Virus record (IMG/VR): IMGVR_UViG_3300006201_000009
Length of the DNA stretch: 64,000 bases
From: a virus
Lineage: Duplodnaviria; Heunggongvirae; Uroviricota; Caudoviricetes
Direction: 5' to 3' (one strand)
Of this stretch, positions 17,907 through 48,467 are shown piece after piece. Position 1 is the first letter of the stretch. The number at the start of each line of letters is the position of its first letter. The notes below the pieces were generated by a model, which saw only the letters and a list, made by a program, of their open reading frames with translations, was not told where the DNA came from and did not search any database. Both the position numbers and the translations under genes were made by a program.

Positions 17907-18367
17907 ATTTCAACCTTCCATTTATCGTCGGCAAATTCTTCTTCGATGATTTTTCTCACTATGTTCCAGTCGCCGCCACCCAGTCCGCAACCGATGCCAT
18001 AAGGGAAGCCAATAGTAAATTCTGTATCGGCAATCTCTATCGGAATAAGGGTTTTAAGTTGTTGGCAGCATAGCCTAAACATCTCATAGTTCGTATGGTT
18101 AATGCCACGCGGCAAGTAATGAAGCTGTGCGAACATATTAGCAATGTAGTGGGTCTTAGCCTCTGAAATTGCGCATATTTGAGCAACTCCCATTAGGTAT
18201 TCCAGTTTATTCTGCTCGCATAGCTGTTTATATTTTGAAAAGATATGGGGGTAAGTGGCGCGTATCTGTTTTGCGATGCCTGAACCCATAACTCCTTGAC
18301 AGTTTACTTGGTGGCAGATGATATTGCAGTTGCTTTTAAGCAAATCTCCGTTTTTATATGTGATCAT
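17891..18367 (-). CDS. Macro-domain protein (ADP-ribose binding/hydrolase)
   Basis: ITYKNGDLLKSNCNIICHQVNCQGVMGSGIAKQI matches the macrodomain N-terminal signature. Confidence 0.6.
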   Translation of the reverse strand: MITYKNGDLLKSNCNIICHQVNCQGVMGSGIAKQIRATYPHIFSKYKQLCEQNKLEYLMGVAQICAISEAKTHYIANMFAQLHYLPRGINHTNYEMFRLCCQQLKTLIPIEIADTEFTIGFPYGIGCGLGGGDWNIVRKIIEEEFADDKWKVEIWKLN

Positions 18368-19860
18368 TAAAATTTATCTCCATAAAGCCTTCTGCGGACA
18401 TCGGCAAGACTATATTCGAGCGTCATCTTGCCGTCGTTAAAGACCGTCTTTAGGGCATTGTCGGCACGATAAGTCTCTTTGAAGTCGTGTTCGTCTTCGC
18501 TTGTTAACGCGCCGTCAGCCCCCGTTAAAACGAGCACACAGCCTTTGTGAGACTTTTTGAACGAAGCCTCTTTGGGATTTTTGAAAATCATTATAGGCTT
18601 TCCGTCTTTATCTTCAGCATAAGTCGCCTTGATGGCAATTCCGAACGTATCTCTTGTGTAGGGGTTGAACGTCGGGATAGCAGCGTGTTCCTCGTAAGAC
18701 TCAAGGCATTGCATAGAGAAGCTACCAACACCGAGAGCAACATTGCTTGCTGCAAATCCGTTGTCAACCAATATCGTGTAAATTGCTTCTGCTCTTTGAG
18801 GCGTAATGCTATCGCCGTATATTGCCTTGATATGGGGGTTTAGAACCTTGTAGCCCTTTGAGTTGACTGTTCCACCGAACTGCTCCCAAAGGTGGAACAC
18901 GGTCTTTGTGACGACCTCAACGGGGTCGCCAGAGTCGCCGCGCACCAAGAGACATCCGTTATGCTCGAGGATTTCTTTCTTACACATTGGCAAGATGTTG
19001 TCTACCAAGTTCCAGTAATCGTAGCTGTCGCTCACCATACTGAAAGACGTATTAGGATAGATTTCTGTGAGCAGACGCTTAATCATTGTGATTTCGTCAC
19101 CGTCAACCGCGAAATTGCTGCACATTACAGAGTGCTCAGTTGACACAGAACCAAAGCCGACTTCCTCTTTTGAACAGTCGCAGTTATAATATCTTTCCAT
19201 ATAATCTACCGCAGGAACGGTGGCAGTGTTCACGAATGATAACAGCCAACCGGCGGAAGATTTATATGCACTACGTTTTGACTCTTGTCCTCTCATTGAG
19301 AAATCTCCAAGAGCTTTTCTACGAGGGATATTGTCGTCGCAACTTAAATCATAGAAGTGATCTACAATTTTCCTATATTTGTACCCGACATTTGCCGAAA
19401 TCATGGCGTGCCACATTTCGCAACTGATGACAGATTCGAGCGCGTTTGTAAGCCAAGCAAAATCGGGGTGAGTGTTGCTTATCTCGAACATAGGAACGCC
19501 GATTGGAACGAGAGTGCCTTCTGCGAGTGCCTTAATCTCAATGGGCAGATAGCCCAAGTCGTGTAGTTCTGCGATGCGCTCAATGCCGTACAACCCTTCA
19601 CCGAGTGTGTTGTTGAGGAGATGTTTGTATTCGCGTACAACGTCTTCCTTAGGACGGGAAAAGAAGAACTCGTTAAAGTCTTCGATAAGATATTCTTTGA
19701 TGAAAGACTGTAACCCAAACATTATAAGGTGTTTATCGTTCTTTAATCTGCTCATTCTTGGCACAAAATAGCTTACGACCTTCGTGATGCCTTTTGGATA
19801 TTGGTTCCAATGAACTTGTTTATAAAAATCGCTTTCTAAAAGCGGGTTAATTCTGTACAT
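18367..19860 (-). CDS. nadV: Nicotinamide phosphoribosyltransferase (NAMPT/NadV)
   Basis: ESDFYKQVHWNQYPKGITKVVSYFVPR N-terminal NAMPT signature; 497 aa. Confidence 0.65.
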   Translation of the reverse strand: MYRINPLLESDFYKQVHWNQYPKGITKVVSYFVPRMSRLKNDKHLIMFGLQSFIKEYLIEDFNEFFFSRPKEDVVREYKHLLNNTLGEGLYGIERIAELHDLGYLPIEIKALAEGTLVPIGVPMFEISNTHPDFAWLTNALESVISCEMWHAMISANVGYKYRKIVDHFYDLSCDDNIPRRKALGDFSMRGQESKRSAYKSSAGWLLSFVNTATVPAVDYMERYYNCDCSKEEVGFGSVSTEHSVMCSNFAVDGDEITMIKRLLTEIYPNTSFSMVSDSYDYWNLVDNILPMCKKEILEHNGCLLVRGDSGDPVEVVTKTVFHLWEQFGGTVNSKGYKVLNPHIKAIYGDSITPQRAEAIYTILVDNGFAASNVALGVGSFSMQCLESYEEHAAIPTFNPYTRDTFGIAIKATYAEDKDGKPIMIFKNPKEASFKKSHKGCVLVLTGADGALTSEDEHDFKETYRADNALKTVFNDGKMTLEYSLADVRRRLYGDKF

Positions 19861-23624: not shown

Positions 23625-23898
23625 ATAAAGGCTTTAAGGTCAGCCAACCGCACATACTTAACCCGAAAAATACTCAGGGTTGGATATTTGCTCCCCGAAG
23701 GTTTTACTCGATACTCAAACACACAAAGGGAATTTTCACTCGTCTCGTGAAATTCGTTATCGAATCGGATTTTCATGAGCTCGCGTAGTGAGCTTCTAAA
23801 AATCTGATTTGATGGAAGGGCGTTGTGATACATTTGCTATAAGCAAGTGCCTAACAGTATGTATAAAAGTTAGCATTGCTGTTTGAGTATCGGAGTAG

Positions 23899-23978
23899 TG
23901 GTGGAGCTGTTGGGATTTGAACCCAAGTCCTACGAATTCACTTTGGTTTTAATCGTAGTCGAAACCTTTCTCAGCCCC
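23899..23978 (-). ncRNA. tRNA-like RNA with canonical acceptor stem, T arm and CCA but aberrant D/anticodon region
   Basis: GGGGCTG...TTGGGTTCAAATCCCAA CAGCTCC A CCA; central part folds as an 5-bp stem (TACGA/TCGTA) with a 17-nt loop rather than a cloverleaf. Confidence 0.4.
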
Positions 23979-28156: not shown

Positions 28157-28819
28157 TTAAAGTCCTGTTTGTTCTGTATGGAAGCAGAGCGGCTGACCTG
28201 TTGTTTTGTCGATACCTTCACCAATAACTCGTATATACTTATCGTGCTTCGTGCTTGTCTGCTCAATGTAGACCGTGCCCTTAAAATTCTTAATAAGCGT
28301 AGTTGTCCACGGTTTTTCGGTGTGATAATCGAATTGCGGGTTGTAATTTAATACCTCGGACAAAAGGAAAACGCCAACCATACCAGCATCAGCACAGAAT
28401 TTGCCAAGCTCCCTATTCGTCTTGTCCTCAAAGGTGGTGCAGCTCCAATCACCGTAGATTGTGCTGTTGGTGAGGTATGTGGTGAGACCAAGTTTTTCCA
28501 TTTCATCCCCGTATGAGCAGATATACCAGTCATCAGGGTGAGCTTTATCCCACGCATCGTAAGCTTCACGCATTTTGTCGTACTGAGGGCGGAATTCATT
28601 CTTCATAATGTCAGCAATTTGCTCAGCCGTTAACCCTTCAGCTGCGAGGTCTTTGTCGTTGTAGCTTTTCCTGCTCATATAATCGTCCCACTTGGGTTCG
28701 TCGGTTGTGTCGCGATCCTTGGTAATATAACAAGGGTCTGTTATAATGATATCTCCGTCAAATGACATTAATTTGAGACGTTCTCTGACCATAATTTTCT
28801 CCTTACGCGCCGGCAACAT
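28157..28819 (-). CDS. Hypothetical protein (ITDPCY motif)
   Basis: ORF; no confident family. Confidence 0.3.
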   Translation of the reverse strand: MLPARKEKIMVRERLKLMSFDGDIIITDPCYITKDRDTTDEPKWDDYMSRKSYNDKDLAAEGLTAEQIADIMKNEFRPQYDKMREAYDAWDKAHPDDWYICSYGDEMEKLGLTTYLTNSTIYGDWSCTTFEDKTNRELGKFCADAGMVGVFLLSEVLNYNPQFDYHTEKPWTTTLIKNFKGTVYIEQTSTKHDKYIRVIGEGIDKTTGQPLCFHTEQTGL

Positions 28820-29699
28820 CGCACTGATGAAAAGTGTCTAATAATTTCGACAACTCGTCTGGCAATGCCGCGCTATATTTTGTGTGAAGGAACACATCCA
28901 TATGTACGTTAATAAGCCAATAAATCAATGCTCTCTGTTTGATATGTAGGGGAATGGTTTCTTCGTATCCAATGGCGAAGTAGCTTCCCACATTTTGATG
29001 GTTGTAGAAGTGAGCAATCTCGCTCGGTTCGCCGCGGCTATTCTTAAAGCCTTTCACGAATTTTTTCCCAATATCGTGTAGACTTGCCGCAATAAGCAAC
29101 GTAATTGCAACTCCTTTGTGTGAACTTCTGTTTTTCTGCAATTTTGCGGCTTCCGTCATAACTTTCAAAGTGTGTTCTTTGACTGTGTTGTTATGATGAG
29201 GATTGTCGTGTTCGCAATCGAGCCAATTTTCATAATCGCTGTGCTTATAAGATTCGTCGTTTACCTTAAACTCAATTTCATCCCAGCCCTCATCGTAATA
29301 GGGTGGCTGAAAATTAAGAAGCATACGCTTAATGACACTTTCGCCTACATTACGATTTCTGCTACAGTCCCTCGCTACGCAAGTTTCGTATCTTGCCCAT
29401 ACTACGCAGGCGATTTTCTTGCAAGGTATTTTGAGACTCGATAAGAGATGTTTGCGCTTTTTGCGACTGATGTTGGTTGCATCATATACAACATTCTTGC
29501 TGCTTTTAAGTGCGGCGATAGTGCGGCGCTGCATTTCCTCAAATATTTTAGAAGGGTTGTCCTGAATAGCTTCGTCGCCATAGAACTCTTTTCTTATCGC
29601 GTCGGAGGATAAAATAATTGTATTGTCGTTGGTGAGTTGTTTTGCAACCTCGGTTTTGCCGGAGCCAGGCAATCCTATAAGCATAGTGAATTTAACCAT
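28803..29699 (-). CDS. P-loop polynucleotide-kinase-like domain fused to HD phosphohydrolase (HD-Pnk-like)
   Basis: Walker A LIGLPGSGKTEVAKQL; C-terminal HD motif LLIAASLHDIGKKF; GGAGAGG RBS before MVKFTMLIG start. Confidence 0.5.
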   Translation of the reverse strand: MVKFTMLIGLPGSGKTEVAKQLTNDNTIILSSDAIRKEFYGDEAIQDNPSKIFEEMQRRTIAALKSSKNVVYDATNISRKKRKHLLSSLKIPCKKIACVVWARYETCVARDCSRNRNVGESVIKRMLLNFQPPYYDEGWDEIEFKVNDESYKHSDYENWLDCEHDNPHHNNTVKEHTLKVMTEAAKLQKNRSSHKGVAITLLIAASLHDIGKKFVKGFKNSRGEPSEIAHFYNHQNVGSYFAIGYEETIPLHIKQRALIYWLINVHMDVFLHTKYSAALPDELSKLLDTFHQCDVAGA

Positions 29700-30054
29700 A
29701 GACGACCTCTCCAAAAATCGCATACTGGATAATTGCGTCTGCATCTTCGGCATCGATTTCACCTGCATCGATTTTTCCTTCGTAAAGAATATCAAGCCCA
29801 CGCTCTTCGGCAATCTTTGTTAATCCGGCTATAAACTTTTCAAGATTAAGTTCATACCATTTGTCTTCATCGGAATCGTGAAGCCTAAGTGTGCCGCCGC
29901 GAGAAATCTGATCGCTTGCATATTCTCCGAGATGATCTCCAACAACTTCGGCGCAATCACACCAGTAAGAAATCCCGCCATCTAATGCGGTGCTCATTAT
30001 ATCGTCAATGCACTGATTGTCGTATTCAACTTCATAAGTAATGGTAAGTTTCAT
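29692..30054 (-). CDS. Hypothetical acidic protein
   Basis: Start MKLTITYE preceded by GAGG RBS and GTGTCTAAATATG motif; longer ORF-track version would translate the motif. Confidence 0.35.
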   Translation of the reverse strand: MKLTITYEVEYDNQCIDDIMSTALDGGISYWCDCAEVVGDHLGEYASDQISRGGTLRLHDSDEDKWYELNLEKFIAGLTKIAEERGLDILYEGKIDAGEIDAEDADAIIQYAIFGEVVYG

Positions 30055-31469: not shown

Positions 31470-31925
31470 TTACCTCTTAATATTTTTTATCGCCTCAGTG
31501 GCGAGCTTGTCGCATTCATTATTGAATGCGTTATCGGAATGACCTTTAACTTTGATGAACCTAACCTTATGCTTCTTGGTAAGTTCGATAAGTTTGAGCC
31601 ACAAATCTTTGTTTTGTACTGGCTTTCTGCCACTTGTTCTCCAGGCGGAATTCTGCCAGTTTGTAATCCAGTTTTGGTTGAATGCGTTTACAACGTAGGC
31701 AGAGTCGCTATACAATGTTACTCGACTTGGTGTTTTTAATGCGAGAAGGGCATTTATAACGGCGGCTAACTCCATTCTATTGTTGGTAGTTTCGGCTTCA
31801 CTGCCACTTAACCGTTTAGAGTGTGTGCCGCACATTAAGATAGCACCCCATCCGCCCACACCAGGGTTTCCTGAGCAAGCTCCGTCTGTGTAAATTGTTA
31901 CATCATACATATTGCATTCCTCCAA
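31470..31925 (-). CDS. rnhA: Ribonuclease HI
   Basis: IYTDGACSGNPGVGGWGAIL...TNNRMELAAV...DSAYV...KGHSDNAFNNECDKLA is collinear with RNase HI catalytic DEDD residues. Confidence 0.7.
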   Translation of the reverse strand: MEECNMYDVTIYTDGACSGNPGVGGWGAILMCGTHSKRLSGSEAETTNNRMELAAVINALLALKTPSRVTLYSDSAYVVNAFNQNWITNWQNSAWRTSGRKPVQNKDLWLKLIELTKKHKVRFIKVKGHSDNAFNNECDKLATEAIKNIKR

Positions 31926-32474
31926 AAATATTTGCCGTTACAATCCATGTAAGAAATTGTTGATCATGAAGAGTCACTGAAGTCCGCCACGATGGAAGTT
32001 CTGTAAGTTCGTTAATCATAAATTTGATATTTTGTCAAGAAAGTTTCAATTGAAAGTGGGAAAATAAATTTATTTTCTTGCCGAATTACATTTGTTGTTG
32101 GCTCTTTCTGTGTCGAATTCCTCACCATATTGGTTTCAGGAGCAGGTGATTGCGCATTTGCTGCCTCTGGCAGGCACCGTCTCTCTGACATTTTGGCACT
32201 TTAGATTTAACCTAAAGCTCTATCCGAAGATAGACATAACGATTGTAATGTGAAGCTCAAATACGAGAAAGGGGCGGCGGCAAGCTCCAGAGGAGAGCCG
32301 CCGTTTACGAATCTAACTTTTATCATAAATTAAACTCAAGTTCGCAGAAATTGGTTTAATTTATTATCAAAGTTGGATTTGTATGTGGGATTGTCTTGTT
32401 ACATCCGATATAACCAGATGCCCAATGCTATGTATTAAATTGGAATTTCTATTTAAGCTTCATTTGCTTTTGTC
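31926..32474 (-). ncRNA. ~550-nt non-coding region downstream of RT containing structured repeat element A (candidate ncRNA)
   Basis: No ORF >=60 aa; contains conserved element at 32186-32260 with covarying hairpins. Confidence 0.3.
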
Positions 32475-33623
32475 TTAACCGGCGCGGAGAACCTCTTTGA
32501 TGGTTGCTTCCACGTCTTTGTGAAATTTCTCACTGTACGACTTGATTATCGTTTCGATTGTTTCTCCCTCGACCATTTTGTAATAGGAGATAAGCCCTTG
32601 TAGGTGTTGGGTATCTTCCAGTGACCACGTGTTGCCGTTTTGCTCATCGTTCATAAACGAGAACAGCATTGCCTTAAAGACTTTCTTTTTGGAGTGTCCA
32701 ATCGTGATTTGGTTGTCGTTGTTAAGCATAACGCCTAAATTCCAGTTACGCCCCGCCGAACTTCCGTATCTCGTTTTATTGGTGTTAAGAGTAAACGGAG
32801 CGTGGAATTTATTATTTACAATATCTAATACCGCGTTCTGCACATCGCCCCAGTTGAACGACAAGTCACTCGAAAGGATGATGTCGTCCGCATATCTTGT
32901 GTAAATGAGATGGGGAGTATGTTCTCTCGACATTTTTGCAATAGCGTGGTCAACCGGTATCATAAACAGATTGGTAAGAGTAGGGCTTATCGGGGTTCCT
33001 TGCGGCAAACCGTTATTCAAGTAACACAACGACAATGCTTTCGTTAATTCTTCGCGACCATCTTCACGTGCAAGTATCTCATTGTAGGGGAAGATAAGAG
33101 AAAGTTGCGCAAGAATAAATTCAGGCTTGGAACTTCCGAAGAAATCGTGGAAGTCGAGTTTGAGAAACCAGCGCGACTTATTACGTTGATGTCTCTTAAC
33201 CGCGTCGATTGTACTTCTGCCTTTAACGTAAGCAAACGCTGCGGTGTGATAACTCGCAAAAAGTTGCTTCTCAAATAAAAATTTGAGTTCTTTCAATGCA
33301 CCCATCAATTCATCGAGAGGCGCATTTATTTGGCGCAAGCCGCCGCTTCTTTTGGGAATTTTGAAACTCCTATACAAAGTGGACTTATCCTCGGTGTTGA
33401 TGAGGTCAATATGCCTTTCGTTGAACTTATGAAGAGCGGTTATCATTGCGTCTATATTAACGCGATCCAAAAGACGTTGCGGGGTTCTTTCGCGATAGAC
33501 GGTCTTCGTGTCGTGGGTGTTTTCCATTTGACGCGCAAATGCGGCTTCGTTCATTCCGTTCAAAATGTCGTCAAATGATACTTGGTACATTTTTTCAGGT
33601 ACCGGTGCTGTTATGTATGGCAT
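32475..33623 (-). CDS. Reverse transcriptase (stand-alone RT, retron/UG-DRT-like size; no maturase or endonuclease domains)
   Basis: RT motifs FKIPKRSGGLRQINAP (1/2), LDFHDFFGS (A/3), GLPQGTPISPTLTNLFM (4), YTRYADDIIL (YADD, 5); 382 aa. Confidence 0.75.
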   Translation of the reverse strand: MPYITAPVPEKMYQVSFDDILNGMNEAAFARQMENTHDTKTVYRERTPQRLLDRVNIDAMITALHKFNERHIDLINTEDKSTLYRSFKIPKRSGGLRQINAPLDELMGALKELKFLFEKQLFASYHTAAFAYVKGRSTIDAVKRHQRNKSRWFLKLDFHDFFGSSKPEFILAQLSLIFPYNEILAREDGREELTKALSLCYLNNGLPQGTPISPTLTNLFMIPVDHAIAKMSREHTPHLIYTRYADDIILSSDLSFNWGDVQNAVLDIVNNKFHAPFTLNTNKTRYGSSAGRNWNLGVMLNNDNQITIGHSKKKVFKAMLFSFMNDEQNGNTWSLEDTQHLQGLISYYKMVEGETIETIIKSYSEKFHKDVEATIKEVLRAG

Positions 33624-33934
33624 TTGTGTGCCTCCTAATAAACTGATTTTTGTGAAACGGGCTTCTGAAGGTGACCATGGGTCTCGTTGTTGATGTAGAT
33701 TACCGGTCAGTTTCGTGGAGAAACTCGTAGGATTTCTTAAATGTTGGGGTGATTTTGGGAGTTTTGATAAGGTTACGAATAGCTGATTTGGTGCTTTCGG
33801 CTACTCGCACGCCGATGACGTTCGGCGAGCATCTCGGGATGGAGGTGCTGGCGTCCTTCGTCGCCCTGACATTTTGGCACTCTGGATATAATCCAAAGCC
33901 TTATCCGAAGATAAGCATTGCTTTATTAGTTGTT
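33624..33934 (-). ncRNA. ~310-nt structured non-coding region upstream of RT containing repeat element B (candidate RT-associated ncRNA)
   Basis: No ORF; GC-rich hairpins (gccgatgacgttcggc) and UUCG-hairpin element. Confidence 0.3.
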
Positions 33935-34609
33935 TTAATATGCGTCTACTTCAAAATTGAACGCATCGATTGTTACAATCTTTTTCAGTTCGTTCTTACG
34001 GATGAAGTTCATAAAATTTGCTACACCGTATGAGCAAACAATTCGGACGGTCGGTGCAATGCCCATTTCTACGTGACACGCCGTCATAGGAGTGGACTCT
34101 TGCGCTTCTTCGTGAGAAAATTCCATTCCCTTAATGAAGTTGTCCACGCTTTTCGGATCGCGCCAATCCGCAGCATAATGCTGAGCATCTTCGAGCCTTG
34201 TCCTAAAATCAAACATTGCTTTGATGGACATATTCGGCTTATTTTTTGTCGCAATCGTTCTACGCAGGTCGATATTGTCAACGCAGAGAAAGACATAGCC
34301 ATTGAGCTTGGTCTTTTCCGACCAGCCGTCGTTGCAAATTTGGATGTCGTTCTTCGCTTCGGGATTGATTGCAAGAAGCATATCCCTTACGGCTTCCGTC
34401 TTTAATCGCTTAATGTCGGCATTTACAAACATCTGGTTCGCAAGGTTATGTGCCGATACAACGTCGAAGTCGTACAAAGATATCTTGGTAAGTCCAAGAC
34501 GAATGAGGAGTTCTGCTACCGTCGAGCCGACCGAGCCGCAGCCAATAATATGGCAACGGTTCGTAACCTTAATCGGGTCGAAGTAGTCCTGAGATTTTAC
34601 AAGATTCAT
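33935..34609 (-). CDS. Minimal E1-like ThiF/MoeB-family adenylyltransferase
   Basis: Rossmann GxGxxG IIGCGSVGSTVAELLIRLG followed by LYDFDVV; 224 aa; operon with JAB and Ubl-like genes. Confidence 0.6.
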   Translation of the reverse strand: MNLVKSQDYFDPIKVTNRCHIIGCGSVGSTVAELLIRLGLTKISLYDFDVVSAHNLANQMFVNADIKRLKTEAVRDMLLAINPEAKNDIQICNDGWSEKTKLNGYVFLCVDNIDLRRTIATKNKPNMSIKAMFDFRTRLEDAQHYAADWRDPKSVDNFIKGMEFSHEEAQESTPMTACHVEMGIAPTVRIVCSYGVANFMNFIRKNELKKIVTIDAFNFEVDAY

Positions 34610-34611
34610 AT

Positions 34612-35550
34612 TTATCTACCTCCGTATCGTCCGTAGCCGTACACACCACTATAATAGTCATCGTCAAGCGGGTCAGGGGCGTCATCGTCAAGAGCACTCA
34701 GTTGACGCGCTTCTTGCTTAGCTCCAATCTTCGGAGATTTTGTAGTTGTAGCGGGCGTCGTTTGCGCTGCCGCTGTGTTTCCATACGAACCGCCGTAATG
34801 GGAACCTCCGCCGTAATTGCCACCGCTATATCCACCGCTGTTATAGCTGTATGTCTTTTCCTTAACGAGCTCTTTTGCTTCGTCGAGGAACTTCGTAAGC
34901 CAGCCAGCGGACTCGTGAAGAATGTTGATTTCGTCCGTTGAGTAAAGCGCATTATTCTGTAAATCGTACACTTCACCGCTTATGTCGCCCTTTTTGTTAA
35001 AGATAAGGAAAATGTAGAAGTAATCGGACTTAGCCGACGGCATTCCGAAGTTGTTCAAAATATTTCTGCGGTAAGTCATATCAACGGTTGACGGGGTAAC
35101 GCCCATATTCACATGGGAATGTCCATGGAAACGGAGAGCGTTGAACGTGTTGTTATCGAGACCGTCAAGCCACTCTTCATAAGCCTTTTGGTCGGAAGTT
35201 ACAGTTGAACCTGTAACTTCGTGGGGGAAAACAAGGATATCCTCAATGAGGAACGTGTCGGGAGCGGTTCTCTTTACAACTCCGTGCCACTCAACCTCGG
35301 TAGAGTAGGAGTGGACGAGTGCAAAAATCTTTATCCACGCTGTTTCTGTAAAGATAATGTTTGCTTTACGATCGTCTTTTACTTCTTTGAGCTTGAAGTT
35401 GAGGGTTACGCCCTCGGATTGGTCGCCCTGAAATTTTTTCTTTTTGAGCTGGCGACTTTCTTCGATGAGTTGCGCCTGAGCGCTACGCAGAAATTCATTG
35501 ACTTCTGCTTCGGTAGGGAATATTTTTTTAGCCATTTTCAGCACCCTCAT
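34612..35550 (-). CDS. JAB/JAMM-family metallo-isopeptidase with Gly/Tyr/Ser-rich low-complexity C-terminal tail
   Basis: JAMM motif E...HGHSHVNMGVTPSTVD (HxHx7SxxD); C-terminal GGYSGGNYGGGSHYGGSYG...YYSGVYGYGRYGGR. Confidence 0.65.
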   Translation of the reverse strand: MRVLKMAKKIFPTEAEVNEFLRSAQAQLIEESRQLKKKKFQGDQSEGVTLNFKLKEVKDDRKANIIFTETAWIKIFALVHSYSTEVEWHGVVKRTAPDTFLIEDILVFPHEVTGSTVTSDQKAYEEWLDGLDNNTFNALRFHGHSHVNMGVTPSTVDMTYRRNILNNFGMPSAKSDYFYIFLIFNKKGDISGEVYDLQNNALYSTDEINILHESAGWLTKFLDEAKELVKEKTYSYNSGGYSGGNYGGGSHYGGSYGNTAAAQTTPATTTKSPKIGAKQEARQLSALDDDAPDPLDDDYYSGVYGYGRYGGR

Positions 35551-36913
35551 TTTGTCTATTCTCTCTTATATAAGCAAGAAATTCGTGAAGTGTCATCTCT
35601 TTCCCGTTATCAGCAAGTATGCACTTACGTGGCGTGTCAAATGTATTGCGTACATCGTCTACAAACTCTCTGATGACAGTAGAATCACCAAAGTTAATGT
35701 TTTTAACGGCGGCAATGGTTTGTTCGATAGCCATATCCCAATTACCTTGTTCCATATAAGAATTGATGTATCCCTCGTTACCACCAAGACAAGCGTGATG
35801 ATACAGGTGCGGATGGGGCAAATGGGTGTTGTTAAATTGTCCAGAAACGTAGCCTCTTCGAGCATTAAGACTTGAAAGGTTAACCAACCTGAACATACCT
35901 TCAACCCTAAAGACGCCCTTGTTTTCGGCAAACACCCCATAAAAGACATCTTTGATATCTTTACTTGCGCCACCGATTGCTGAATGTTGATTGTTATATA
36001 AGCGCAAGAATGCGTCGGCATCAAAATACTCTATCGTTTCGACAACAGAGAAGTCCATTACGTTGCCATCGGTGCCTTGCGAGGTATTACAAATTGTGAT
36101 CTGCCTATGCGACATAAAGAACTTGTAAACGCTGTCGTCTGCACTATTTCCTTGTGCTTGAAGTGCTTCTAAATTGATGCTGCTTTGATTGATCTTATTG
36201 AGCAAGCTTGTGATTTCCGCTTGATAACGTTCGATTGAACTGTGATATTCGTCGCATTGTCTTTTTAGAAGTGATATCTGCCTCGTGCGATAGCCGTCAT
36301 TCCAGCCGATAAGTACCTTTCTAAACCGAGATGACTTAAAATCATACGGCGCACATAAATTATCTATGATTGTCCTAAACGCATCCTCGTTTTTGTCGTT
36401 GATAGCTTTGAACAGATTTTTTTCGTCGTTACTTATGCCCTCGGTGAAATACCACGGAAGAATTCTGAACATTATGGAACAGAACATATCCATCCATTTT
36501 TCCGAAGAAGAATTTCTCACAAAGACGATAGTGCTTCTTAAAGCCATATTGGAATAAACGCGGGTTTCCGATGCACCGGAAAGATAGGGGGCGACAGGAT
36601 ATGGAGGCGTATCCAGCGCAACCCAACCCTCTTCGTTAATTGTAGGTAGCTGTGCGCCACGGGGTGCGGTTAAAATATAGAGTTCGATGCCATATTCTTT
36701 GGCGCGATAAGCATACTCGTTTCCGTTGGTACGCTCGTAAAACTGATCGGTTTCACACTTGATGGTTTTAATCGTTTCTATATCGCCCTGATGGTGTTTC
36801 AGGGCGATGAAACGTAAAACTGCTCCAAGCGTAAAACTACCCAAAGGGGAGTTATTATTGCCAAAGAAAGCGTTAGCATCAGAACTCGTGATGATAGTAT
36901 TCACGTAGTTCAT
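35528..36913 (-). CDS. Large protein with possible C-terminal E2/UBC-like element (HPH...C)
   Basis: THLPHPHLYHHACLGGNEGY resembles the UBC HPN-x(6-8)-Cys active-site context; position between Ubl-like and JAB genes. Confidence 0.3.
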   Translation of the reverse strand: MNYVNTIITSSDANAFFGNNNSPLGSFTLGAVLRFIALKHHQGDIETIKTIKCETDQFYERTNGNEYAYRAKEYGIELYILTAPRGAQLPTINEEGWVALDTPPYPVAPYLSGASETRVYSNMALRSTIVFVRNSSSEKWMDMFCSIMFRILPWYFTEGISNDEKNLFKAINDKNEDAFRTIIDNLCAPYDFKSSRFRKVLIGWNDGYRTRQISLLKRQCDEYHSSIERYQAEITSLLNKINQSSINLEALQAQGNSADDSVYKFFMSHRQITICNTSQGTDGNVMDFSVVETIEYFDADAFLRLYNNQHSAIGGASKDIKDVFYGVFAENKGVFRVEGMFRLVNLSSLNARRGYVSGQFNNTHLPHPHLYHHACLGGNEGYINSYMEQGNWDMAIEQTIAAVKNINFGDSTVIREFVDDVRNTFDTPRKCILADNGKEMTLHEFLAYIRENRQNEGAENG

Positions 36914-36938
36914 ATCCTGTACGCTCCTTTATGTATTC

Positions 36939-37175
36939 TTATCTTGCGCCGTCGGCTTTAACGATGCTGTTCAAGTTGACGGTTGCGCCGTCTGCCACGC
37001 CGAGCTGCTCGAAAGTCGAGTTCAAATCCGTTATCGTAAGAATGCTTCCGTTGAGGTTGACCATTGCGCCGGCAACGCCTGCATCCGCCTGTTCAAATAC
37101 CTGAGCGGGGGTCTTCGTTACTTCCGTGATAACTTCCTGGCGCATCGTGTTGGTTTTTACAAGAACTTTAATCAT
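36939..37175 (-). CDS. Small beta-grasp/ubiquitin-like candidate (78 aa)
   Basis: Size, predicted beta-rich fold, position at head of E2-JAB-E1 operon; ends ...VKADGAR (no terminal GG). Confidence 0.3.
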   Translation of the reverse strand: MIKVLVKTNTMRQEVITEVTKTPAQVFEQADAGVAGAMVNLNGSILTITDLNSTFEQLGVADGATVNLNSIVKADGAR

Positions 37176-38166: not shown

Positions 38167-39711
38167 TTAACCCTTAACGGCTTGCTCTACGAGAGCGTAA
38201 CGTTCGCTGTTAAGTTGTTCAAGCAAGCACTCAAACGGGTCGGTGGAATTGCTGAGAACCATTTTGACAATGGCGGGACTGAAACCGCTTACCAGAGCAA
38301 CGCCGAGTTCGTTTTCTTTTACGGGGATAGTTCCCGTGCGGCTGCAAATATTCCAGAAAACCAAGCGGGGGAGTTTGTAGCCGAGCTCTGCATAACGCTT
38401 TGCGATAACAGAGAAAAGCTTTTCGTCAACCCTCGCATATCCATATCCTGATCGACGAGAAGATACCGCACAGGAATCAAATTCCATATCGGAGAGGATA
38501 AGGATATTTGCGGGCAGTTCACTCTGCTTCATGTGTGCTTTTATCGCAGTTGTTAATATTAAGTCAAACACAGCTTCGATGTTTGTGTTTGCAACTTCAT
38601 TATGGGTGCGAGCAATGCCTATTTTATCGCGAAGCGATTTGCCGCTCGCGAGGTTGACGAGTTGCGGATGTTCGCTGAACGTGATGTACTTATCTTTGAA
38701 CTGCCCCGAACTTCTTTCGGCAAAGTAAATTGCCAAAGCGTTGGCGACATCGAGGCAAGAAACGCCCGTACCACCAACCGTCGAAGTCATACTGCCAGAC
38801 CCGTCGGCTACGCAGATCGTGTTGCCGTTTTCTTTGACGTAATCGGGAAGTGCCTTCCACATTTCTTCAAGGGCGGTATCCTTGTCCAAAAGACCGCCCC
38901 AGCTTCCTTTGCTGTATTTGTGAACGATATCGTGAGGGAAGAGGACACCCGCATTGATTTTTGTTTCACCCCTTTCGAGCTTGGAAAGATACTCTCTACG
39001 GCGTTCTTCGTCGTTGCGCAAGAAAGCTTTGTTGTAGATAAGGTTCGCTCTCGACGGAACCGCTGCGTATTCGATCGCCGACCACTCACGGTTGCTCATC
39101 TTAACTTCTACTACGTTCGTATAAGAGCGCAGAGCGGAGAGCATTTTACGATACTGTCTCTCAGTGATGCCGAGCTGACCGATAAGCAGTTTTGCATAGC
39201 GGCGAGTTTCTGCGGAAGAAGCATTTGCGGACGGCATCCATTTTGCACACAGCGAAATCGGTTGTTTGCGACCATAATTGCTCATATCACTGTCCAGCTG
39301 CTCTTTGATGATTGCCACAACCTCGTTGTGAAGCGCGGTGTCGAGCAGAACGATGAGATTATCCCATCGAGTGTATTCGGGGATGAGCTTGAGAAGTTTC
39401 AACGCAACGGCAGGTTCTTCCTGAATAAGATATTCCATACCGATACGGAACAATCTGCGTTCACCAAGACCGCCACGAACATCGCCGGCATAGAACAGCC
39501 ACTTGATAGCGAGCAATTTATCTTCGTAATATGCCTTTGCAAATCTCGCTCTGATATTTGCAGGAACCTCGTTACGTAACGAAGACACCGCAAAGTTGAT
39601 GTCGAGCAAAGCCTTGCCCGAAGTACGATACCCAACCGCGCCGTTTTCGGTACGCGATTCGTTGAAGTCTTCGCCGAGCGTGCGTTTGAGATTGTCCATA
39701 AAGTTGTTCAT
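38167..39711 (-). CDS. rsr: Ro60/Rsr-like protein (TROVE-like N-terminal region + vWA domain with MIDAS)
   Basis: vWA MIDAS CVADGSGSM; ~515 aa; GGAGG RBS before MNNFMDNL; the 611-aa ORF-track version is an artefactual extension across two tRNA-like genes. Confidence 0.5.
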   Translation of the reverse strand: MNNFMDNLKRTLGEDFNESRTENGAVGYRTSGKALLDINFAVSSLRNEVPANIRARFAKAYYEDKLLAIKWLFYAGDVRGGLGERRLFRIGMEYLIQEEPAVALKLLKLIPEYTRWDNLIVLLDTALHNEVVAIIKEQLDSDMSNYGRKQPISLCAKWMPSANASSAETRRYAKLLIGQLGITERQYRKMLSALRSYTNVVEVKMSNREWSAIEYAAVPSRANLIYNKAFLRNDEERRREYLSKLERGETKINAGVLFPHDIVHKYSKGSWGGLLDKDTALEEMWKALPDYVKENGNTICVADGSGSMTSTVGGTGVSCLDVANALAIYFAERSSGQFKDKYITFSEHPQLVNLASGKSLRDKIGIARTHNEVANTNIEAVFDLILTTAIKAHMKQSELPANILILSDMEFDSCAVSSRRSGYGYARVDEKLFSVIAKRYAELGYKLPRLVFWNICSRTGTIPVKENELGVALVSGFSPAIVKMVLSNSTDPFECLLEQLNSERYALVEQAVKG

Positions 39712-39831
39712 AGTTACCTCCAATGAATTAAAATATGAGATTTTAACTCCAAGACGGGATTCAAAAAGAGATTTCAAGTCCTTGTTTTGTAACGTTGCTG
39801 TTACCGTCTTTGAGTTGATGGTACGAAAGAA

Positions 39832-39950
39832 TGGGAGCGGTGGGACTCGAACCCACGACCACGAGCTTAAAAGGCTATTCAGTAAAATTGCTGTGAGAGA
39901 TTTTACAAACCTCGTAGTGATACGTGCTCTACCAACTGAGCTACGCTCCC
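39832..39950 (-). ncRNA. Y-RNA-like tRNA mimic 1 (acceptor + D arm + T arm; anticodon arm replaced by 8-bp stem with 41-nt loop)
   Basis: GGGAGCG-TA-GCTCAGTTGGTAGAGC ... GTGGG-TTCGAGT-CCCAC-CGCTCCC-A; no CCA. Confidence 0.55.
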
Positions 39951-39956
39951 AAATGA

Positions 39957-40073
39957 TGGAGATGGTAGGACTCGAACCTACAACCTTCGGCACCCTATGC
40001 AAAAGTAAAGTTGCTGTATGAGCCTAACAAGACTCGTCTTTAACGACGCTCTATCCAGTTGAGCTACATCTCC
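39957..40073 (-). ncRNA. Y-RNA-like tRNA mimic 2
   Basis: GGAGATG-TA-GCTCAACTGGATAGAGC ... GTAGG-TTCGAGT-CCTAC-CATCTCC-A; expanded central region; no CCA. Confidence 0.55.
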
Positions 40074-41775: not shown

Positions 41776-42053
41776 AACAATCTCCTTATGGATTTTATAT
41801 TTCCCAAACGCGGTAAGGATTGAAAGTTACGAAGCTCGTCGCAGACTGAGCTGAGTAACGGAGTGTGGAGGCGCTCGCGCCTCCTTTTCAATCCATGTTA
41901 TTTTGCGTAAATGATGATGAAGACAGAACTGGGCGGTAGCCCGTGATGTCTTCATGATGGTTTACGTCAAAATGAGACAACGTTTTGTTACATTCGGTAA
42001 GACCAAATGCCCAAAAATGATATGTATTTGGAATAACCGTTTGGGTACATACG

Positions 42054-42395
42054 TTACGCCGGCACAGCCAGCAGTTGGTTCATCGTTTCGATGTCCGTAA
42101 ACACAATTCCTTTATTCGGAACTGTAACGCATTCTTTTTTGATAGCCACCCAACGACCTGTCGGTATGGGTTTGTCGCGTTCATCACGCCGTGCTTCAAC
42201 AACAAGCACTGCGTCCTTGAACTTTTCTTTGCATTCGGCACAAGGTTCGAGGCTCGTACACATATGTTGTGGTGCTTCGCCGTCGTAGTTCGCGCCGAGT
42301 AAAGCAATTTCGCCCGTTTCTTTCCCGCAATAGAAGCAGGTCGATAGGGTGGGATTTAAGCCGTACTTTGCGTGTAACCTTATACTATTAGACAT
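42054..42395 (-). CDS. Hypothetical zinc-ribbon protein
   Basis: CFYCG...CAEC; preceded by AAAGGAG RBS and GTGTCTAAATATG motif. Confidence 0.35.
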   Translation of the reverse strand: MSNSIRLHAKYGLNPTLSTCFYCGKETGEIALLGANYDGEAPQHMCTSLEPCAECKEKFKDAVLVVEARRDERDKPIPTGRWVAIKKECVTVPNKGIVFTDIETMNQLLAVPA

Positions 42396-42895
42396 AATCC
42401 TAACTCCTTTGTGTCTAAATATGTTTTATGCAATTCACAATCCTGTGTAACGTAGAAGGTGATCTCAGAAGGTTCCGGAGAAGCTTGGATACGGGAAAAA
42501 TTCGCAAGTTACCGTAACGAGAGGTCATTGAGAATAAGGAACTTAAAGAAATGTTACTTATCGTCTGCAATTATTAACTCGAAATGGTGAGGCGACCTGC
42601 TCCAAAGACCTTGGTTGTTCAGCCCGATGTCCAACGGCGGTGCCGTCGTCCCGCGGAGCTGCCTGCGGCGCCTGTCCGTCTCCCTGACATTTTGATACTT
42701 TGAGTTTTACCCAAAGCCCAAACCGTTAGGTAAGGAATACGATTGTGAAGTCCGCCAGCCACTCGGTAGGCAAAGGGGGATACCTACCGAGGGAGGTGTT
42801 TGTGAGGTATAAGACCTGTGCTGGCGGTGCGAAAGTGTCTAAATATGTCGTAAAAGCCTTAAAAAATTTAAGCACCTCGCAGGTGTCATTGGTGA

Positions 42896-42930
42896 TTGAC
42901 AAGACGATTATAAAACATATTTAGACATAA
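42896..42930 (-). promoter_or_regulatory. Consensus sigma70 promoter TTGACTTATGTCTAAATATGTTTTATAAT (leftward)
   Basis: Reverse complement of plus 42896-42930; paired with inverted partial copy at 42838-42858. Confidence 0.55.
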
Positions 42931-42973
42931 GTCAAGCGTTTTTACAAACTTTTTTTGATTTTTTTGAATTTTT

Positions 42974-45318: not shown

Positions 45319-46654
45319 AATGTTACACTCCTTGAATGTATGTATTTTTTTGAGCAATCGGTTGAGTATCCACGCCCGCCACGAGGAGGCTTGCTCATTG
45401 GGCGCATCGCCCCACATAACGTGGGGCATAAGGAGGAGAAAAATGAAAGAAGGGCAGAGATTATGCGGGTTTGTGCAAGTTGTCCAATAAAAAGGACACG
45501 AACCGTTCGAGGCATTTTTCGCCCCGTTTTGCGTAATGCGCCGCAATCTCGGACACTTGTGCCAGTGATACATTATCGGCTAAACACAACGCTGCCGAGC
45601 GTTCGGGCATCTCAAAGAGATACTTTTCCATAAACACCTCAAAGCGATTTTTATGTGGGTACGTCCACAAGCGTTAGGCAATTAGCAAAATCACACTCGC
45701 CACGGGAAGGCTTGCCTTTGAGTGCATAAAGAACGCCCCGCGCAATACTGCGCGAAGCGTTCCCATATTACAGCGTATTGCTACGCTAATTGTAAAGTTT
45801 TGATAATTCACGCTATTCAAAATCCGTTTCAGACGTACACCGAATACACGCTAACACCCCTTGGGGCATAGTCGCATACATACTCGCACGACGGGATTAC
45901 CTTCGATTTGACAAACATAACGCCGTTTGTCTTACCCACTTGGGGCAAGTAACGCTATGCTGGCGCACCATTGTACGAAAGTCGTAATAATGACATCACG
46001 CATAGACACACGTTGCACAAGCCGAGTTTAGGTTTGATGCCATACCTGTTGCCATTTTCACTATCTGACGCGCAAAGGGGCTTAATTCCGCGATTGCTTA
46101 ACCGACGCATTTTTGATTTGGCTGAATGTACAGCCTTATGCTTGCGCATATGCCACTCATCACTATACCCTGATGGTGAATAGGTCGAGCGCAAAAAGCA
46201 CTCAATGTTAGGCAAGTTCGCCGATATTACTATCGCCCACGCTACACCACGCGGAGGTTTGCCTATGTAGCGCAACACCAATGTGTGGACGTCCCTATTA
46301 AAGGGAACGCCCCACATAATTGAAAGTTAAACAAGTTTGTGTCTTGACTGTCCGCAAGTCATAGTTGTTGTAATGAACGCTATGCCGTCCACCCTTACGG
46401 GGCGCGTTTGGCACGCGACGCCCCATAGGTAATTAGTCCCTATGGTAACTGTTTTATATACGGTCGTGATGTGATGCACGACATAAAACCTAATTAAACG
46501 TAACGCAAGAGGTTTGTTTGCGTTGTGTCCGCTCACTTAAAGAGTAGCGGGGGGCGGGGTGTCCGTCCGTGTGGGCGGTTGCCGTGTCCGCTCACTTAAA
46601 GAGTAGCGGGGGGCGGGGTGTCCGTGTCATACGCTCGCGGGCGCACGGCAAACA

Positions 46655-46692
46655 CGGCAAAAAGAAAACCCCCGCGGGGGCGGGGGTTTAGG
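46655..46692 (-). terminator. Rho-independent terminator (GC hairpin CCCCCGC/GCGGGGG followed by U-tract on minus strand)
   Basis: aaaacccccgcgggggcgggggttt; on minus strand hairpin then TTTTCTTTTTG, just after the stop of 46705-47454. Confidence 0.55.
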
Positions 46693-46704
46693 TGGTTGCG
46701 GTGG

Positions 46705-47454
46705 TTATGCGTTAGCGGGTTGCGCTTGCTTGTATGTGGTGTATTTGCGTTGTATCGCTTGTAAATGCTCTTGTAGCGTTTTGCGGTGTATTTTCAAAAT
46801 GTCCGCTATTTGGTGTACGCTTTTACCGCTCAGCCGATAGCGTAAAATTTGCGCTTGTCGGCTTGTCAAATTTAACGCTTTAATCGTTGCGGTTACTTGC
46901 TTAAAGTCCGTTGCCGTTGGCATATCCCATTCGGCGGGTATTTCGTAGTAAAGCGTGTTGCCGTCCGCGCCGATTTCGTCCACATATACCCGCTTGTAGT
47001 CGTGTTGACGCTCGCCCATAATATAGCGGTTTACGGCTCTAAAACACGCCCGCAAAATGGTTGCGGGGTTGCCGTCCTTGTCTGTCTGTCCGTCCGCTGT
47101 CGCGTCTTGTAACGTCTTGCCGATATAGTCGCATAAAAACGCGCTCGCCGTTTGCGCTATGTCGTAGCCGTCCGACAACGGCGCGCCCGTCTTTTTGTTT
47201 TCGGTGATGTCCGCGACAAGTCCGCAATATAACGAGTATATAAAAGGCTGTCCGCCTTTTTGGTAGCAAGTTTTTAACGCTCTAATCGCTATACGCTCGC
47301 CCATTGTTTGCACGCTGTCCGCCGTGATAATTTCGGCGGGGTTTGCCGTGTCCGTTATGGGCGCGGGCGGGGTTTGCTTGCGGTTGCGCTTGCTTGCGGT
47401 TGCGGGGTTTGCTTGCCTTGCCGTCTTCGGCTGTTTGGTGTTGGTGGTTTTCAT
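46705..47454 (-). CDS. ECF-like sigma factor (region 2/region 4 with C-terminal HTH), high-GC gene
   Basis: C-terminal LTSRQAQILRYRLSGKSVHQIADILKIHRKTLQEHLQAIQRK (sigma region 4/LuxR-type HTH); GC content much higher than rest of phage. Confidence 0.45.
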   Translation of the reverse strand: MKTTNTKQPKTARQANPATASKRNRKQTPPAPITDTANPAEIITADSVQTMGERIAIRALKTCYQKGGQPFIYSLYCGLVADITENKKTGAPLSDGYDIAQTASAFLCDYIGKTLQDATADGQTDKDGNPATILRACFRAVNRYIMGERQHDYKRVYVDEIGADGNTLYYEIPAEWDMPTATDFKQVTATIKALNLTSRQAQILRYRLSGKSVHQIADILKIHRKTLQEHLQAIQRKYTTYKQAQPANA

Positions 47455-48467
47455 TTTTGTTTGTCCTTTGCCCTATATTTTGTTGACAACGGCGGGCGGG
47501 TGTTGTCGTGGTATAGTATAAAGGGCGGGCGGGGTGTTGTCAATGATTTTTGGCAAAATTTTTTCAAAAATATTTTTTCAAAACCTATTGACAACGGCGC
47601 GAAAAAGTGCCACCGCGTGGGGGTGCGCGTGCGCGTGTTATGCGCGGTTATTTCGTCGCGTGTGTGTGCGTGTCGCGTGGGTGTGGGTTTGCCCGCTGTC
47701 CGTGTCCGTCCGTCCGCTTGTCGGCGGTTTTGGCGGTTTGGTGTGGGCGTCCGTTTGGCTGTCGGCTGTCCGTGTGTGGGTGTGTTTGGTGTGGTGGTGT
47801 GGTGGTGTGGGTATGCGGGCGCGTGTTTTCCTTTACGGCTCACGGAATAACCGAAAACGCGCAACGGCTCACGGCTTGCGGGGGTCCGTGTGCTTGCGGT
47901 TGCGCTTGCCGTCCGTGTCCGTGTCGGCTGTTTTCGTCCGTCCGTCAAATATTATCTTTTTAACGTTGATAATATCGCCGTATAGTCGGGGGGTATTTTA
48001 CACGAAAACGGCAACCGAAAAACGGCGAACAGTGTGTGTCCGCTCACCATCACTCCCACAAACATTTCCCCGAACACCGACACCTCTTACCTCGGTGGAT
48101 CGTTTCGGAAACTTTCCCAATAGTGGGGGAGAATTTAGAAACGGGAATCTTGGCATTTTTTCTTGATCCATACAATCAATTTGTAAATTCTCCCGCACAG
48201 TAGGCATCTTTTCCGAAGACCTGCCAAATTCACAAAATAGGGCACATTTTACATGGCTCCGAACTGCACCCTTATTTGTGCCCGCAGCTGCTTTAGTAAC
48301 GGAGAGCTTCTTATATTATATATAGTAACAGTAAGCTCCCTTATATATAGCTTATAGTAACAGTAAGCTTACAGCGTATGCTCTCTTAGTTCAGAGTATA
48401 AAAGAAAAAAAATAAATAAAAAAAAGAAAGAAAACCTAAAATTTTTTTATTTTTTTTCGTAAAAACA

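Follow-up and report, generated by a model that had tools for sequence, protein, structure and literature searches.

The locus described here lies in a 64,000-nt stretch of phage DNA (IMG/VR record IMGVR_UViG_3300006201_000009), which we refer to as the window, and is centered on a reverse transcriptase (RT) gene at positions 32475 to 33623 on the minus strand. A preliminary description, made from the nucleotide sequence alone, proposed that this gene codes for a 382-aa RT with the motifs IPKRSGGLRQI, FHDFFGS, QGTPISP, and YADD. Our analysis confirmed the open reading frame (ORF) and the intact motifs and yielded a match to the Pfam family RVT_1 (3.8e-19). The RT gene is bordered on both sides by noncoding sequence, beyond which lie a ribonuclease HI (RNase HI) gene on one side and genes for an E1-like ThiF-family protein and a JAMM metalloprotease-like protein on the other. 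The results presented below suggest, with a probability that we put at about 0.6, that the locus is a retron-type module of a temperate phage and that its one RT serves at least six paralogous, msr-msd-like noncoding RNAs (ncRNAs).

The RT and its closest relatives

The RT was compared with family profiles and with proteins of known structure. In PADLOC, the top matches were RT_II-A (1.5e-53) and RT_I-A (2.4e-48), and the best 25 of the 68 matching families were all retron RTs. The nearest NCBIfam family was retron_St85_RT (NF038233), with a score of 191.6 bits that was below the curated cutoff of 235. The group II RT-maturase family (TIGR04416) scored 75.8 bits against a cutoff of 300, Drt2 (NF041746) scored 44.8 bits against a cutoff of 390, and Drt3a scored 40.5 bits against a cutoff of 200. 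The twelve top-scoring matches in the PDB were retron RTs or unnamed RT chains. Ec83 came first (1.8e-27) and was followed by an entry named only "Retron," by Ec78/St85-family RTs, and then by Ec67, Kva2, and Ec86; the sole group II RT among the PDB matches, GsI-IIC, ranked last at 5e-7. The locus had been likened to both retrons and DRT systems. The profiles and PDB matches sharpened the first resemblance to retron types I-A and II-A, but the second found no such backing, with Drt2 and Drt3a far below their cutoffs.

The histidine of the region X motif NAxxH and the glycine of the region Y motif VTG are the most conserved residues of retron RTs (Mestre 2020, PMC7736814). H145 and G297 were invariant in the RT family, and in a set of 13 RT homologues D157, Y244-A-D-D247, and G297 were invariant. 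The family also had a conserved 65-aa N-terminal extension. RT relatives from bacteria (GTDB) were at most about 31% identical to the RT, and the phage clade spanned 34 to 99% identity. Because of the PADLOC, NCBIfam, and PDB rankings, the retained histidine and glycine, and the invariant catalytic residues, we concluded that the RT is, judged by its sequence, of the retron type and nearest to clade 1 (I-A/II-A1), but that it forms a divergent branch. Two observations count against this placement. The St85 score does not make the RT a member of that family by the NCBI threshold, and the retron motifs are degenerate: in the alignment with Ec83, NAxxH (NAKIH) was replaced by AVKRH and VTG by NLG, with only the H and the G retained. 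The pairing of the RT with a dedicated RNase H inside a phage had been viewed as unusual. The occurrence of an RT in a phage is by itself nothing unusual; retron-type RTs were annotated in several phages.

Structured RNA units beside the RT gene and elsewhere in the window

The gaps upstream (33624 to 33934, 311 nt) and downstream (31926 to 32474, 549 nt) of the RT gene contained only short ORFs, all on the opposite strand, in line with the ORF-free flanks of about 310 and 550 nt that had been reported. The downstream gap would be 564 nt if the RNase HI gene starts at the ATG at 31910, as 146-aa homologues suggest. In alignments of the gaps from eight phages, whose RTs were 62 to 84% identical to the window RT, the upstream gap had the invariant CTAATAAAG at its start and the invariant GTTTATTAG at its end, where the RT ribosome-binding site follows directly. 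The two ends pair as an inverted repeat of 8 bp whose 5' arm is followed by an unpaired G; at the sequence level, this is the a1/G/a2 arrangement of a retron ncRNA. The upstream gap folded with a z score of −4.75 relative to dinucleotide shuffles, and its minimum free energy structure closed the a1/a2 stem. Both gaps contained a copy of a 71-nt direct repeat (77% identity) in which the differences were compensatory, and the gaps and their elements held their positions across RT homologues of 52 to 99% identity. Thus, the proposal that the flanks are structured and conserved stood up to folding and covariation analysis, with conserved positions, a low upstream z score, and compensatory changes in the scaffold described below. 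The RNAs appear to be of the RT-template kind that had been suggested, but they are three discrete, retron-like units rather than two long ncRNAs.

A covariance model of the shared scaffold (R1) was run unfiltered over the whole window and gave six matches with E values below 0.02, all on the minus strand, which is the RT strand. Three of the units are at the locus (nc1 upstream of the RT gene and ncB1 and nc2 downstream), and three more (nc3, ncB2, and nc6) are elsewhere, 8 to 10 kb away. Hence, the interval that had been assigned to the system was correct but too narrow, as it left out the copies at 42435 to 42748, 41803 to 42045, and 23714 to 23887. The scaffold common to all units consists of hairpin 1, GC, hairpin 2, and GUAnCAA(AAUG); this last tract is conserved and single-stranded, and a variable template region follows it. 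A closing stem, a1/a2, of 7 to 8 bp and often longer joins the ends. All six units had an 8-mer complementary to their first 8 nt located 166 to 306 nt downstream (with one G-U pair in ncB1), a G directly after a1, and a G directly before a2. The units ended 11 to 40 nt before the next start codon, which belonged to the RT gene, the RNase HI gene, a 113-aa ORF, or a 73-aa ORF.

The upstream unit, nc1 (33635 to 33929, minus strand, 295 nt; covariance model score of 76 bits; R1 scaffold match at 33929 to 33864), begins with a1 CTAATAAA at 33929 to 33922 and continues with a candidate branching G at 33921, hairpin 1 at about 33915 to 33900, and hairpin 2 at about 33898 to 33880. Its a2, TTTATTAG at 33642 to 33635, abuts the RT ribosome-binding site and ends 11 nt before the RT ATG. 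The a1, G, and a2 of nc1 were invariant in eight loci. Downstream of the RT gene, ncB1 (32256 to 32457, minus strand, 202 nt; R1 score of 28.3 bits, E value of 4e-4; scaffold match at 32457 to 32394) has a1 CTTAAATA followed by the G, a2 TATTTGAG, two msr-like hairpins, and a long AT-rich hairpin whose 30-nt arms are 87% complementary (inverted repeat I1). This unit was conserved in eight loci, and the middle regions of its orthologues (L002, L005, L008, L010, L019, L068, L072, and L073) folded with z scores of −4.7 to −9.8. The adjacent unit, nc2 (31938 to 32248, minus strand, 311 nt; 76.5 bits; scaffold match at 32248 to 32183), shares the 71-nt repeat with nc1, has a1 TTACAATC followed by the G and a2 GATTGTAA, and ends 27 nt before the RNase HI ATG. 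Its a1 and a2 covaried among loci, as in the pairs TTATAATC/GATTATAA, GTACAATC/GATTGTAC, and TTACAACC/GGTTGTAA.

Among the distant units, nc3 (42435 to 42748, minus strand, 314 nt), located 8.8 kb from the RT gene, scored 49.9 bits with R1 (E value of 5e-9; scaffold match at 42748 to 42682) and has a perfect 8-bp stem of a1 TCACAATC, followed by the G, and a2 GATTGTGA. About 160 nt upstream of nc3 is a candidate sigma-70-like promoter, TTGACT-N17-TATAAT (42907 to 42935, minus strand), which matches the consensus at 11 of 12 positions, a consensus match only, and includes TGTCTAAATATG. The short unit ncB2 (41803 to 42045, minus strand, 243 nt; R1 score of 27.7 bits, E value of 6e-4; scaffold match at 42045 to 41975) has a perfect pair of a1 CCCAAACG, again with the G after it, and a2 CGTTTGGG; its middle region had a z score of −10.2, and an orthologue was present in L133. 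The probable short copy nc6 (23714 to 23887, minus strand, 174 nt; scaffold match at 23887 to 23815) lies in a tRNA cluster and has a perfect pair of a1 CTCAAACA, followed by the G, and a2 TGTTTGAG. It scored 21.8 bits with R1 (E value of 0.014) and is the weakest of the six window units; a second model (R2), made without nc6, scored it at 35 bits (E value of 8e-5), and the z score of its middle region was −4.0. No Rfam 15 family matched the window RNAs; the sole weak Rfam signals came from miRNA-precursor models, which matched the long AT hairpin of ncB1.

Several features were observed near the distant units. The 12-mer TGTCTAAATATG occurred at 12 exact sites in the window, compared with 0.5 expected (4887, 6487, 6553, 7873, 10418, 30066, 42412, 42836, 42916, 48477, 49659, and 53200), and was often followed by TTTTATAAT, which gives the promoter-like sequence TTGACT-N17-TATAAT. 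Three copies of TGTCTAAATATG bracket nc3, and the 12-mer probably functions as a promoter or operator motif of the phage. A 113-aa protein with zinc-ribbon-like Cys pairs is encoded between nc3 and ncB2 (42054 to 42395, minus strand); it was identical in six other contigs, and no family match was found for it. In the tRNA cluster, 12 nt upstream of nc6, there was an Rfam tmRNA match (23899 to 23978, minus strand, 69 bits) that covered model positions 1 to 374 in only 80 nt. This match corresponds to a tRNA-like core without the tag region and was not called by ARAGORN.

A phage RT beside repeated sequence could also be part of a diversity-generating retroelement (DGR) or a degenerate group II intron. 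In a DGR, the repeats would differ at adenines, but the differences seen here were compensatory and not adenine specific, and the RT carries the QGxxxSP motif. No template/variable repeat pair of at least 40 nt was found in the 64-kb window, where the template regions matched nothing else; the preliminary description had named such a pair as the finding that would overturn it. Within the limits of the window, a DGR was rejected on these grounds. A group II intron was rejected on the basis of the TIGR04416 score and of the Pfam results, which agreed with the earlier statement that the RT ORF contains no maturase, endonuclease, or RNase H domain. In addition, no Rfam intron match was found at the gathering threshold or at E values up to 5. 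We regard the probability of either origin as negligible.

The scaffold was then traced in related contigs. In 16 copies collected by hand, all cells (100%) of the 12 scaffold base pairs were paired, and double compensatory changes were seen in 11 of the 12; when the partner was slid by one column as a control, pairing fell to 43 to 57%. Pairing was 99.6% in 62 copies. Further searches with models R2 and R3 covered about 190 loci that surround homologues of the RT or ThiF. They gave 119, 39, and 52 matches on contigs of phages and prophages from gut and rumen; all matches were on the RT strand, and the bacterial retron loci that served as controls had none. Alignments made with a model lean toward the structure of that model, and the model E values are rough. 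In the closing-stem test, the first 7 nt had an exact reverse complement 120 to 460 nt downstream in 88 of 117 nonidentical matches, and control offsets gave 2 to 6 of 117. Because of this difference, we consider the closing stem to be real. The stem stopped sharply before the G in 84 of the 117 copies, and many of the others had a 7-bp stem with the G one position earlier. At least 20 different a1 sequences were found, each with a matching a2.

The copies also had preferred positions relative to the RT gene, namely, about 300 nt upstream, 5 to 25 nt after the stop codon (short class), and 190 to 330 nt after the stop codon (long class). Most loci with an RT at least 52% identical had a copy that preceded the RT start by about 290 to 360 nt, and nc2 and ncB1 were found at orthologous positions in phages with RTs that were only 52 to 69% identical. 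Some loci contained arrays. In L109 (1 to 3147), a contig of a metagenome-assembled genome from a termite gut, seven tandem units were spaced at about 320 nt, with the first starting 26 nt after the RT stop codon, and L142 had three units between ThiF and the RT gene and one after the RT gene.

The units were of two classes. Type B units (ncB1, ncB2, and nc6) are 174 to 243 nt in total, have template regions that folded with z scores of −4 to −10 relative to shuffles, and resemble classical msd in having a long, stable hairpin. Type A units (nc1, nc2, and nc3) are 280 to 320 nt in total and have a template region of 228 ± 22 nt that is G-poor in its second half. The z scores of type A templates mostly ranged from +1.4 to −3.7; for all 86 template regions together, the median was −0.84. 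The rate of change in type A templates was compared with that at four-fold sites of RT and ThiF, with values of 0.10 to 0.23 versus 0.13 to 0.17, 0.34 to 0.37 versus 0.29 to 0.37, and about 0.5 versus about 0.56. The scaffold changed 3 to 10 times more slowly than the type A template. Because the template drifts at the four-fold-site rate, conservation applies to the scaffold, the closing stem, and the length but not to the sequence of the template. We had considered a hypervariable template under diversifying selection, and this idea was rejected, as ordinary near-neutral drift suffices to explain a rate equal to that of four-fold sites.

Related contigs also contained nc3, with one allele altered only in the template part; this allele is the one case that near-neutral drift leaves unexplained. 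In L135/L140, its 23 differences (window positions 42443 to 42682), of which 15 were transitions, fell between the scaffold and a2, and the rest of the surrounding 1.6 kb, including two ORFs, was 99 to 100% identical, with one change in the adjacent scaffold. The allele could be a recombination patch or a cDNA-mediated replacement; we did not build on it.

These data bear on whether the additional units are functional. The locus might be an ordinary one-template defense retron of a prophage, with nc1 as the only functional ncRNA and the others as decaying duplicates or fossil insertions. Indeed, only nc1 has both the canonical position and an invariant a1/a2, and the nearly neutral drift of type A templates without excess structure would favor this explanation. 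Decay, however, would erase stems, positions, and length, and the extra copies keep their own a1/a2 complementarity, the G, and both hairpins with compensatory changes. Furthermore, nc2 and ncB1 stay at orthologous positions between distantly related RTs, copy length is held nearly constant, and type B units are among the most stably folded, with z scores down to −10. We therefore think that the copies are not decaying duplicates and that the one-template explanation is quite unlikely.

A further possibility is that the RNAs act as RNAs, without reverse transcription, as processing or stability elements, as riboregulators, or as partners of a Ro/TROVE-like protein, and that the RT acts elsewhere. 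The location of every unit just before a start codon would suit such functions, as would the copies that are kilobases from the RT gene and the presence of a Ro-like protein and RNA repair enzymes in the phage; in Y RNA, too, a closing stem joins the 5' and 3' ends. Ro-binding helices are conserved in sequence, however, and the closing-stem sequences of the units were not. The densest copies flanked the RT gene or formed arrays right after it, and an a1-G...a2 order with a2 at the RT ribosome-binding site is the layout of a retron. To our knowledge, the known members of this RT class all copy such an RNA. We consider a purely RNA-based function unlikely.

Finally, the closing stem could serve in template jumping, as it joins the ends of the template and would allow rolling-circle copying into long or concatenated cDNA that yields a new gene or a homopolymer, as in DRT2 and DRT9 systems. 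The long, unstructured type A templates would fit such a process. On the other side are the low Drt2 and Drt3a scores, the retron RTs at the top of the PADLOC ranking, and the finding that all six ncRNAs have stop codons in every frame in both senses, on which basis a DRT2-like never-ending ORF was rejected. The likelihood of a DRT2/DRT9-like process is, in our estimation, very low.

Neighboring genes and the phage that carries the module

The RNase HI gene that had been noted just beyond the downstream gap (31470 to 31925, minus strand; likely start at ATG 31910, 146 aa) was identified by matches to Pfam RNase_H (1.4e-43) and NCBIfam ribonuclease HI (201 bits, cutoff of 160). Its description as a dedicated partner of the RT did not hold and was rejected because the adjacency is not conserved: an RNase H gene adjoined the RT gene only in the subclade with RTs at least 57% identical, was upstream of the RT gene in three loci, and was absent elsewhere. 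In known retrons, the RNase H of the host trims the copied template RNA. The phage RNase HI could be a loosely linked neighbor that helps in this trimming.

Upstream of nc1 and the RT gene is an operon (33935 to 37175, minus strand) whose gene order is the 78-aa ORF, p461, the JAMM gene, and the E1-like ThiF gene. The ThiF-family adenylyltransferase (33935 to 34609, minus strand) matched Pfam ThiF (9.5e-22) and had UBA5, MoeB, MccB, TcdA, and Cap2 as relatives in the PDB. The JAMM/MPN metalloprotease-like protein (34612 to 35550, minus strand), which has a disordered Gly/Tyr-rich tail, had no Pfam match. It was recognized by the invariant motif H142-x-H144-x7-S154-xx-D157 and by an AlphaFold2 (AF2) model that matched Rpn11 and CSN5 (E value of 3e-9, probability of 1.0). 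The 461-aa protein p461 (35528 to 36913, minus strand) is confined to this phage family and combines a MogA/MoaB-like domain with a weakly E2/RWD-like one that has an invariant HPH-x5-C motif. A Foldseek search for an E2 relationship of p461 found nothing, and an E2-like role is tentative. The product of the 78-aa ORF (36939 to 37175, minus strand) ends in ...KADGAR.

The RT had been described as standing alone, which is not the case, as the JAMM and ThiF genes lie directly upstream. The three genes upstream of the RT gene were present in essentially every locus of the clade. Specifically, an IMG/VR search that started from ThiF found 51 loci, and 50 of these had an RT gene 0.3 to 2.2 kb downstream and a JAMM gene upstream. 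The E1 part was the only part of the upstream operon that PADLOC matched.

The window is part of a phage genome, as shown by genes for a terminase large subunit (56984 to 58762) and a portal protein (58762 to 60285). It also contains a primase/helicase gene (54 to 1883), an integrase-like recombinase gene (8526 to 9824), and a cluster of 14 tRNA genes. No nucleotide match was found among GenBank phages, and the closest protein match was 41.7% identical and came from an unannotated fecal contig. The homologous contigs originated from human, rabbit, chicken, ruminant, and termite guts and were binned with Christensenellaceae, Oscillospiraceae, and other Clostridia. Some were 0.4 to 0.9 Mb long, and one was from an isolate genome (L100). 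Together with the integrase-like gene, these data point to temperate phages, and the carrier of the module is probably a temperate phage of gut Clostridia.

Other regions of the window are described here for completeness. The region from 46500 to 47800, where gene orientation flips, is GC-rich (GC content of 0.54, AT skew of −0.42). GTCC-rich repeats occur in it, as does a direct repeat of 42 nt with two perfect copies, at 46525 and 46584. The region could serve as an origin, in packaging, or in regulation. Genes for RNA repair and NAD metabolism (13803 to 15014, 18367 to 19860, and 28803 to 29813, minus strand) share the early region, and their products are an RNA ligase, a nicotinamide phosphoribosyltransferase, and a KTI12/AAA_33 kinase whose C-terminal half carries an HD-type motif. 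A Ro/TROVE-like protein (DUF2828; phrog_850, "RNA-binding protein") is encoded within 38167 to 40073 (minus strand). At the 5' end of its gene are two Rfam "tRNA" matches of 117 to 119 nt (39832 to 39950 and 39957 to 40073) that were not called by ARAGORN and that may be Y-RNA (YrlA)-like partners. Together, the RNA-repair and NAD genes, the tRNAs, and the Ro-like protein suggest a phage that is heavily geared against RNA-targeting defenses.

Proposed function and relation to known retrons

In the model that we favor, the ncRNA units lie between the genes of a polycistronic minus-strand transcript, and the RT would recognize their shared scaffold. The a1/a2 stem would set the G beside the 3' end of the template, and the RT would use the 2'-OH of this G, which adjoins a1, as its primer, with copying running from the base 5' of a2 toward the scaffold. 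RNase H, of either the phage or the host, would then trim the copied RNA. The products would be a set of different branched RNA-DNA molecules (msDNAs): short, very stable hairpins from type B units and weakly structured single strands of about 200 nt from type A units. By analogy with known retrons, we lean toward the view that the RT would copy several of these RNAs.

Retrons have been described with a single RT, ncRNA, and effector each. The closest RT sequences are those of types I-A (Ec83/Eco4 and Ec78/Eco7) and II-A1 (St85/Sen2 and Ec73/Eco3), which likewise have an ncRNA upstream on the RT strand, a1/a2 flanks, an unpaired G, msr hairpins followed by the template, and a2 beside the RT start. 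At the sequence level, the phage locus thus has several defining features of a retron, namely, the RT clade, the upstream ncRNA, a1/a2, and the G. It differs from the I-A and II-A1 retrons in the low identity of its RT (less than about 31%), the degenerate NAxxH and VTG motifs, and the N-terminal extension. It further differs in having at least six ncRNAs per RT (flanking, arrayed, or kilobases away) instead of one, a second ncRNA class with an unstructured template of about 230 nt, a JAMM-E1 operon in place of an ATPase/HNH or NDT effector, and a fixed place in the phage backbone instead of in a defense island. The number of ncRNAs per RT, the class with a long, unstructured template, the fixed place in the phage backbone, and the linkage to JAMM and E1 genes had no counterpart in the full-text literature that was searched.

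Ec73 on the retronphage phiR73 is an example of a prophage-borne retron. Temperate phages are known to carry retrons, including in P2/P4 hotspots (Mestre 2020, PMC7736814). The phage locus is similar to these in being a retron on a temperate phage that is expected to act in the lysogen. However, Ec73 and the P2/P4 retrons are single-ncRNA cassettes with standard effectors in variable "moron" hotspots, whereas the module described here is kept in place across a phage family with RTs that are 34 to 99% identical. Stand-alone msr-msd-RT cassettes are mentioned only in clades 2 and 11 (Mestre 2020, PMC7736814).

The JAMM and E1-like ThiF genes are in the order seen in Bil systems (BilABCD, which comprise a ubiquitin-like protein [Ubl], E2, a JAMM deubiquitinase, and E1) and recall CBASS Cap2/Cap3. 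The protein with the weak E2-like domain and the 78-aa ORF precede them, and the E2 and Ubl roles of these two proteins are only putative. DRT2 and DRT9 systems (UG2 and UG28) also pair a single RT with a structured ncRNA template, but their RTs are of another class; at the phage locus no ORF runs through the template, and the candidate branching G at the closing stem is a retron feature. We found no paper that linked Bil or Cap systems to an RT. A search of the full-text literature, with subscription-only papers outside its scope, found no phage retron with several ncRNAs and no retron linked to E1 or JAMM genes.

Several points weigh against the model. All of its mechanistic steps are drawn by analogy with characterized retrons. 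Type A templates have no excess structure, unlike classical msd hairpins, and their near-neutral drift means that they could be unselected spacers. The dispersed copies are not tied to the RT by presence and absence: L182, the sole ThiF locus without an RT gene, had no ncRNA match, and one such relative is too few. The bias of the copies toward the RT strand partly reflects the neighboring genes, which are all on the same strand. PADLOC detected no known retron effector at the locus. Lastly, the evidence that links the RT to the JAMM-E1 operon is synteny, and gene order in phages is conserved anyway.

Retrons serve as the sensor and regulator parts of conflict systems, and the RT was almost never found without JAMM and E1 genes upstream. 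For these two reasons, we suggest that in lysogens the RT and its msDNAs may work together with the JAMM-E1 module in conflicts between phages or between phage and host. This is the least certain part of our model, and we hold it as a possible but doubtful role. We consider a role of the RT and msDNAs in replication unlikely.

The units share a recognition scaffold yet differ in their closing stems and templates. If the RT copies all of them, the module would be a naturally multiplexed retron, which bears on retron genome editing, where orthogonal templates and long, unstructured donors are needed, and one would have to ask why a phage maintains such a library of msDNAs. The near-obligate linkage to JAMM and E1 genes offers a lead, open to experimental test, to retron partners of a new kind. 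Gut metagenomes of humans, rabbits, ruminants, chickens, and termites are rich in the family, so experimental material should be easy to find. We tentatively envision, as a speculation with the odds against it, a widespread family of gut and rumen prophages in which the RT is a multitemplate enzyme, the dispersed, partly tandem ncRNAs, with the unstructured templates of about 230 nt among them, are its library, and the msDNAs control or are used by the JAMM-E1 module. If this is true, the family would carry a new type of retron that has a protein-conjugation system as its "effector" and that acts in conflicts between phages or between phage and host.

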